Assembly: GCF_030684315.1 (NCBI RefSeq)
Contig: NC_081360.1
Span: 44,153,424-44,217,423 of the forward strand
Reading direction: 5' to 3'
DNA length: 64,000 nucleotides
From: Stegostoma tigrinum
Lineage: Eukaryota
Shown: positions 12,771-12,881 of the stretch, in pieces
How the letters are laid out: every line of letters starts with the position of its first letter
Numbering within the stretch: position 1 is the first letter of the stretch
Made by a program: the position numbers and the translations under genes
The notes under the pieces: model-generated
What the model was told of the DNA's origin: nothing
Databases searched by the model: none
The model's input: the letters and a program-made list of their open reading frames with translations, nothing else

Positions 12771-12881
12771 GTGAGATTCACCATTCTTTACTGACGAATT
12801 TTTAAAAATTAAAATATGTTGCCATTAGATATTTATGAATTAGGATTTTCAATTAAGGCAAAATAACATTTTATTTTCCAG

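Follow-up and report, generated by a model that had tools for sequence, protein, structure and literature searches.

The window analysed here, a 64,000-nucleotide stretch of the Stegostoma tigrinum (zebra shark) genome, carries on its plus strand a part of the titin I-band, with long Ig-bearing reading frames and a train of single-Ig exons. One such titin locus was seen in the genome (3.2 Gb; counts of this kind are lower bounds), and no second copy of titin or of novex-3 was seen there, the best other match to the Ig domain I19 scoring 54.8 bits and the best I19 paralogue in Stegostoma tigrinum being only ~31% identical. The exons and signals considered below are as follows, in window coordinates.

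6509..6559, plus strand: titin exon 47 equivalent (51 nt, phase 1-1, AG/GT ends)
7794..12770, plus strand: novex-3 5' exon, "48a" (4977 nt, phase 1-1), with I18, a long unique sequence containing a short tandem repeat, and I19
12485..12769, plus strand: orthologue of Ig domain I19 (Pfam Ig match), ending exactly at the exon end
12771..12881, plus strand: intron (111 nt, GT-AG, phase 1, 76% AT)
12803..12805, plus strand: in-frame TAA inside the intron, with the same letters in the contigs of 4/4 sequencing runs
12808..12813, plus strand: ATTAAA hexamer in the intron, probably there by chance (48% of shuffles hold A[AT]TAAA)
12882..16393, plus strand: novex-3 3' terminal exon, "48b" (coding part 3512 nt), with I20-I23 and the stop TAA at 16391-16393
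16430..16435, plus strand: AATAAA, the likely novex-3 poly(A) signal, being the first A[AT]TAAA past the stop and followed by a T run; the next lies 2.5 kb further on
21347..25216, plus strand: N2B exon, equivalent to exon 49 (3870 nt, phase 1-1), with three I-set domains
26185..26463, plus strand: exon 50 equivalent (279 nt), with one Ig domain

The titin novex-3 region of the zebra shark

The order of the exons, from exon 47 through novex-3 and N2B to exon 50, agrees with Table 1 in the available part of PMC5852582, where exon 47 measures 45-57 nt in other vertebrates, exon 50 measures 279 nt in 7/8 species, and the N2B exons of frog and zebrafish are similar in size to that of the shark. 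The exon 47 equivalent encodes a ..KIEQQIEMEV.. linker, and the same linker precedes exon 48 in bat and monitor-lizard proteins. The region that follows contains six Ig domains with unique inserts, two I-set domains before the break (exon 48a) and four after it (exon 48b), and ends with its own stop and a predicted poly(A) signal; human exon 48 also encodes six Ig domains, I18-I23, according to the available text of PMC13649281. The acceptor of exon 48a outscores 92% of 39 control acceptors, and homologues of exon 48b span lamprey to bat. Bat titin (P0009/P0155) matches I18, I19, the linker, I20 and the C-terminus in order, indicating orthology to mammalian novex-3. Judged by its sequence, the region is titin novex-3.

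In its location between exon 47 and N2B, its six Ig domains and long unique inserts, its own stop and poly(A) signal, the linker motifs after I19 and the conserved C-terminal part, the region resembles the mammalian novex-3 exon 48 as described in the available parts of PMC13649281 and PMC5852582. However, mammalian exon 48 is one exon of ~6.1-8.0 kb, whereas the shark has two (4977 nt and 3512 coding nt), and the shark unique region is longer than that of the mammalian exon and includes a tandem repeat. Coding by one terminal exon, as in human, does not hold here, the intron at 12771-12881 interrupting the region. The tandem repeat, at approximately 10640-11640, is built of an acidic unit of ~14 residues; the bamboo shark has a much longer version of it, and the basking shark, the white shark and rays have none. 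In public annotations of many vertebrates the novex-3 region is filed as a separate 'titin-like', 'unc-89-like' or 'uncharacterized' protein (P0001-P0007, P0017, P0023, P0030, P0038, P0159).

Exon 48' is also present, at 7568/7583-7668 (101 or 86 nt). Its tetrapod counterpart measures 100 or 85 nt in the available text of PMC5852582, and the difference in length is probably due to one extra base in a run of A. When joined after exon 47, exon 48' leads to a stop at 7585. In the models of four other cartilaginous fish and a chimaera, translation begins at a Met shortly before 48' and continues in frame through 48' into exon 48, and in frog, teleost-clade and lamprey models the 48' element ends with a similar peptide; an internal start upstream of 48' may give a novex-3-only protein. 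The idea that the 111-nt intron newly exposes 48'-containing transcripts to decay was rejected, because the stop at 7585 lies 83 nt before the 48'/48 junction, and a downstream junction therefore exists with or without this intron. Further upstream, a short frame with a degenerate Ig-like stretch occupies 3540-3860, in the interval from the end of one exon at 2848 to the exon at 4376; this is the expected place of Novex-1. Two in-frame, Ig-bearing, optional-looking exons with weak donors (4376-5260, 885 nt; 5561-6076, 516 nt) precede exon 47.

A 111-nt intron at the end of I19

The preliminary description of this DNA placed a 111-nt intron within novex-3, with the strong sites CAAG/GTGAGA (12770/12771) and TTTTCCAG/AA (12881/12882) joining two long reading frames. 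The sequence agrees on both counts, as these sites lie 111 nt apart and the stop-to-stop frames 7697-12805 (1702 aa) and 12857-16393 (1178 aa) are joined in one frame. When scored with splice-site matrices derived from 39 further Ig exons in the window, the donor ranks first of 389 GT and the acceptor first of 754 AG in the novex-3 region, and they outscore 64% and 72% of the 39 control sites, respectively. The intron has GT-AG ends with a donor consensus and a pyrimidine tract, and its splice phase is 1, giving the product ...TLIIQ/EPEPK... as in the NCBI zebra-shark model XP_059503180.1 (P0001, 2813 aa). This computed model uses exactly the junction 12770->12882, which is thus already in a public computed gene model. 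It is 100% identical across the region searched, exon 48a included, and a profile of I19 homologues covers its residues 1549-1643, up to the junction. Protein and junction are the same as those described here, but the entry, labelled 'titin-like [Stegostoma tigrinum]', is filed as starting inside exon 48a and not as a titin novex-3 isoform.

The TAA (12803-12805) and the ATTAAA (12808-12813) that had been noticed in the intron are both present, with two bases separating them. An in-frame stop is not above chance, being held by 92% of 5000 dinucleotide shuffles of the intron interior. The length of the intron is like that of 17 other short introns in the Ig array (84-179 nt), and a length divisible by three is common among these (12/17, though they are duplicates of each other). 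Elsewhere in the window, the introns 31001-31123 (123 nt) and 41680-41826 (147 nt) are divisible by three and contain no in-frame stop; their retention would insert 41 and 49 residues, respectively. A second in-frame AG lies 6 nt past the focal acceptor (12882-12888, score 5.3) and could drop two residues, and at the junction the proteins of the basking and white sharks are shorter by two residues. Among the titin Ig-exon donors between 26463 and 62662, A is rare at +3 (4/44, the others being mostly T, G or C), and G occupies +5 in 41/44.

The stop is also found in contigs of public sequencing runs: for 4/4 runs, a single piece covers 11700-14400 without a joint and agrees with the window at every letter, which shows that the TAA is not an assembly error. 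These runs represent at most two samples from one study, possibly the assembly's own source; their contigs carry the intron and behave like DNA, and they speak to the DNA and not to splicing. As for the protein, the 37-residue insert after I19 is absent from all aligned homologues, from chimaera to bat, and a conserved linker follows I19 in shark, ray, chimaera, teleost, frog, lizard, bird and mammal proteins. It is very probable that the intron is real and normally removed. A reading with no intron, in which the TAA comes from faulty assembly or the 111 nt form part of the protein, could appeal to a stretch that is divisible by three and flanked on both sides by one frame, but the identical letters in all four sets of contigs, the top-ranked splice sites and an insert seen in no homologue leave it a negligible chance.

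The intron also lies right at an Ig boundary, as had been proposed, its donor being 57 nt past the second Cys codon of I19. A phase-1 GT occurs exactly 57 nt past this codon in 45/54 Ig motif matches in the window (the focal one included; the motif used for the count misses some Igs), and the remaining 9/54 comprise N2B (+63) and Igs that lie inside large exons or at their stop. At this register, GT is missing from all five other novex-3 Igs. For an intron gained at random in the 8489 coding nt, the chance of falling on any of the six such registers is p ~7e-4, a value computed post hoc and ignoring site preference. With its donor at the 57-nt register, the intron has the appearance of an ordinary Ig exon's 3' boundary. 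The single-Ig, phase 1-1 exons of the titin I-band share with it the donor register, phase 1 and a similar donor consensus. Unlike these exons, I19 has no acceptor at its start and is hence fused to the upstream unique sequence: no matching 5' boundary was found for it, the AG at 12483 scoring -3.2 and ranking 282/754. A stand-alone I19 cassette using this AG was rejected on the same score.

Proposed alternative isoforms

Two further isoforms had been suggested for the shark, one in which novex-3 ends early through retention of the intron, and another in which its 5-kb half is spliced as an internal cassette into full-length titin; both are unsupported. For the cassette, the donor at 12770 is indeed phase-compatible with N2B and exon 50, the joins 12770->21347 and 12770->26185 being frame-open, but this compatibility carries no information, because every Ig-exon donor examined is phase 1. 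Exon 48a is phase-symmetric and frame-keeping (4977 nt, 1-1), a property common to all Ig exons examined. For the optional exons nearby (ending at 5260, 6076 and 25216), the donor scores fall within the bottom 10% of the controls.

Retention of the intron would add 11 residues, followed by the stop. The hexamer behind this stop is at chance level, as A[AT]TAAA occurs in 48%, and a stop followed by the hexamer in 33%, of the 5000 shuffles. It stands 37 nt away from a strong donor, within a very short intron whose acceptor is also strong, and is not followed by a GU-rich stretch. Among 44 other introns, which are mostly less AT-rich, a hexamer lies no more than 60 nt from the first in-frame stop in only one, and falls in the first 111 nt in four. 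The 45-nt stretch downstream of ATTAAA has a T fraction of 0.40 and no GT and is thus not GU/U-rich, a weak test given that the terminal site is only slightly richer (0.44, 2 GT). Intronic polyadenylation characteristically involves a weak donor in a large intron, and here the donor is strong and the intron is of 111 nt. In addition, bound U1 shields the neighbourhood of a donor from cleavage, and intronic polyadenylation occurs preferentially in large introns, according to the available text of PMC5499120 and PMC6428223. A search for shorter proteins that end at I19 gave 0/73 candidates, and one for longer proteins (<=5000 aa) gave 1/6, a bamboo-shark novex-3 that carries the same junction. 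Within this size range, seven cartilaginous-fish models contain I19, and all of them continue past it without ending or being joined to N2B.

The accompanying statement that neither isoform is possible in human is correct for the 12770 junction only, since shortened novex transcripts have been reported in tetrapod hearts, including human (available text of PMC5852582). These truncated transcripts, which arise by retention of intron 44, 45 or 46 or by inclusion of exon 48', have an outcome similar to that of the early-ending isoform; however, the tetrapod forms were seen by RT-PCR (same source), whereas the shark form is suggested only by a chance-level hexamer. Their existence in tetrapod hearts, the two frame-open joins, the clean stop after 11 residues and the rarity of a stop near a hexamer among the other introns (1/44; 4/44 in the first 111 nt) would all suit a regulated switch, operating either by retention and cleavage at ATTAAA, which would yield a novex-3 without I20-I23, or by splicing of the 5-kb half to N2B or exon 50. 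Nevertheless, such a switch is improbable in view of the trivial phase compatibility, the stop and hexamer in 33% of shuffles, the U1 protection and large-intron bias mentioned above, a strong donor with a strong acceptor 111 nt away, unlike the weak donors of the nearby optional exons, and the 0/7 models that end at I19 or leave for N2B. A shade less probable still is the more elaborate scenario in which sharks keep an ancestral two-exon novex-3 whose intron acts as a switch, giving either a truncated titin after I19 or a full-length titin with an additional 1,660-residue I-band segment, both of which would have been lost in bony vertebrates when the exons fused.

Loss or gain of the intron in vertebrates

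Human novex-3 is one exon (48), while that of the shark is split by a genuine intron, and the earlier suggestion that an intron was either lost or gained is borne out by this difference. Exon 48 is listed as single, with 6077-8039 nt, in eight bony vertebrates in Table 1 of PMC5852582 (available part). Two teleost-clade proteins from sequencing-run contigs (P0160 and P0026) are unbroken from I18 to the novex-3 stop. We take such proteins to be unspliced reading frames; P0160 begins in intron-like sequence and not in exon 47, and P0026 is on a 23,668-nt contig, longer than the expected novex-3 message. Teleost reading frames appear to be unbroken across the intron site.

The intron is seen in the DNA of one species, and other cartilaginous fish were compared by their proteins. 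The junction codon is G-initial in 7/7 other cartilaginous fish and in 2/10 tetrapods, but also in 9/13 teleosts (31/32 proteins matched the motif; P0139, broken there, was left out and P0114 was unmatched), and this test is weak because teleosts are apparently intronless. Directly after the junction, the chimaera protein is ~7 residues short, which is what a shifted acceptor would produce, and one devil-ray model begins at the first Met after the junction. These observations are weak hints that other cartilaginous fish may share the intron. Metagenome contigs searched with a six-protein junction alignment yielded 172 pattern matches and no relatives. Novex-3 is present but I19 is missing in three lamprey models from two species, so that the outgroup cannot orient the intron change and parsimony alone cannot pick gain or loss. 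These models (P0060, P0156 and P0157) keep a short Pro-Pro-Met stretch resembling the start of I19, located just before the conserved linker; the lamprey I19 may have been deleted, or may be a skipped exon.

It is plausible, and on balance probable, that this is an ancestral Ig-module boundary intron that is routinely spliced and was lost early in bony vertebrates; the donor register favours such a loss. A gain in cartilaginous fish or in a shark sub-lineage, of an intron that is likewise routinely spliced, is rather unlikely but deserves consideration. Bony vertebrates are apparently intronless at the site, one gain is as parsimonious as one loss, and duplicated Ig exons whose donors share this register abound at the locus, so that a conversion copying a neighbouring Ig exon along with its intron, for example, would also give the canonical register. 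The exact register at the Ig end nevertheless speaks against a gain, as does the rarity of intron gain in vertebrates outside teleosts (available text of PMC12357937), and the ~31% identity of I19 to its best paralogue makes a recent conversion unlikely.

Under the preferred reading of an ancestral intron lost in bony vertebrates, one route that fits the lamprey models without I19 starts in early jawed vertebrates, where a duplicated Ig exon would have brought I19 into novex-3; the 5' intron of this exon would then have disappeared, and its 3' intron would have persisted in cartilaginous fish alone. In a shark transcript that takes the novex-3 route, exon 47 would be spliced to the acceptor at 7794, and the two strong, closely spaced sites of the short intron would serve for its removal; the transcript would end at the AATAAA at 16430, giving an ordinary six-Ig novex-3 tail of 2829 codons from two exons. 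In full-length titin, both novex-3 halves would be skipped together.

A paper noting the split of novex-3 was not found in the literature searched, a scope outside which most subscription papers lie. The elephant-shark connectin paper (PMC12241362) uses the singular, 'the Novex-III exon', in one legend; a split of the novex exon is not mentioned in its available text, and its supplement lacks the word 'novex'. This word is likewise absent from PMC12198301, and the split is unmentioned in the available part of PMC4720518.

As the protein is an ordinary novex-3 and its junction already stands in a public model, the gain from this observation is small unless alternative forms turn up in RNA, and the split novex-3 is a gene-structure footnote, mainly of interest for titin exon evolution. 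With a 5-kb internal exon followed by a 3.5-kb last exon in place of a single huge one, the novex-3 of this shark would provide a natural comparison for the recognition of very large exons. If the intron is ancestral, the giant novex-3 exon would have been assembled by fusing ordinary Ig-module exons, and one such exon fusion would be dated to the bony-vertebrate stem.
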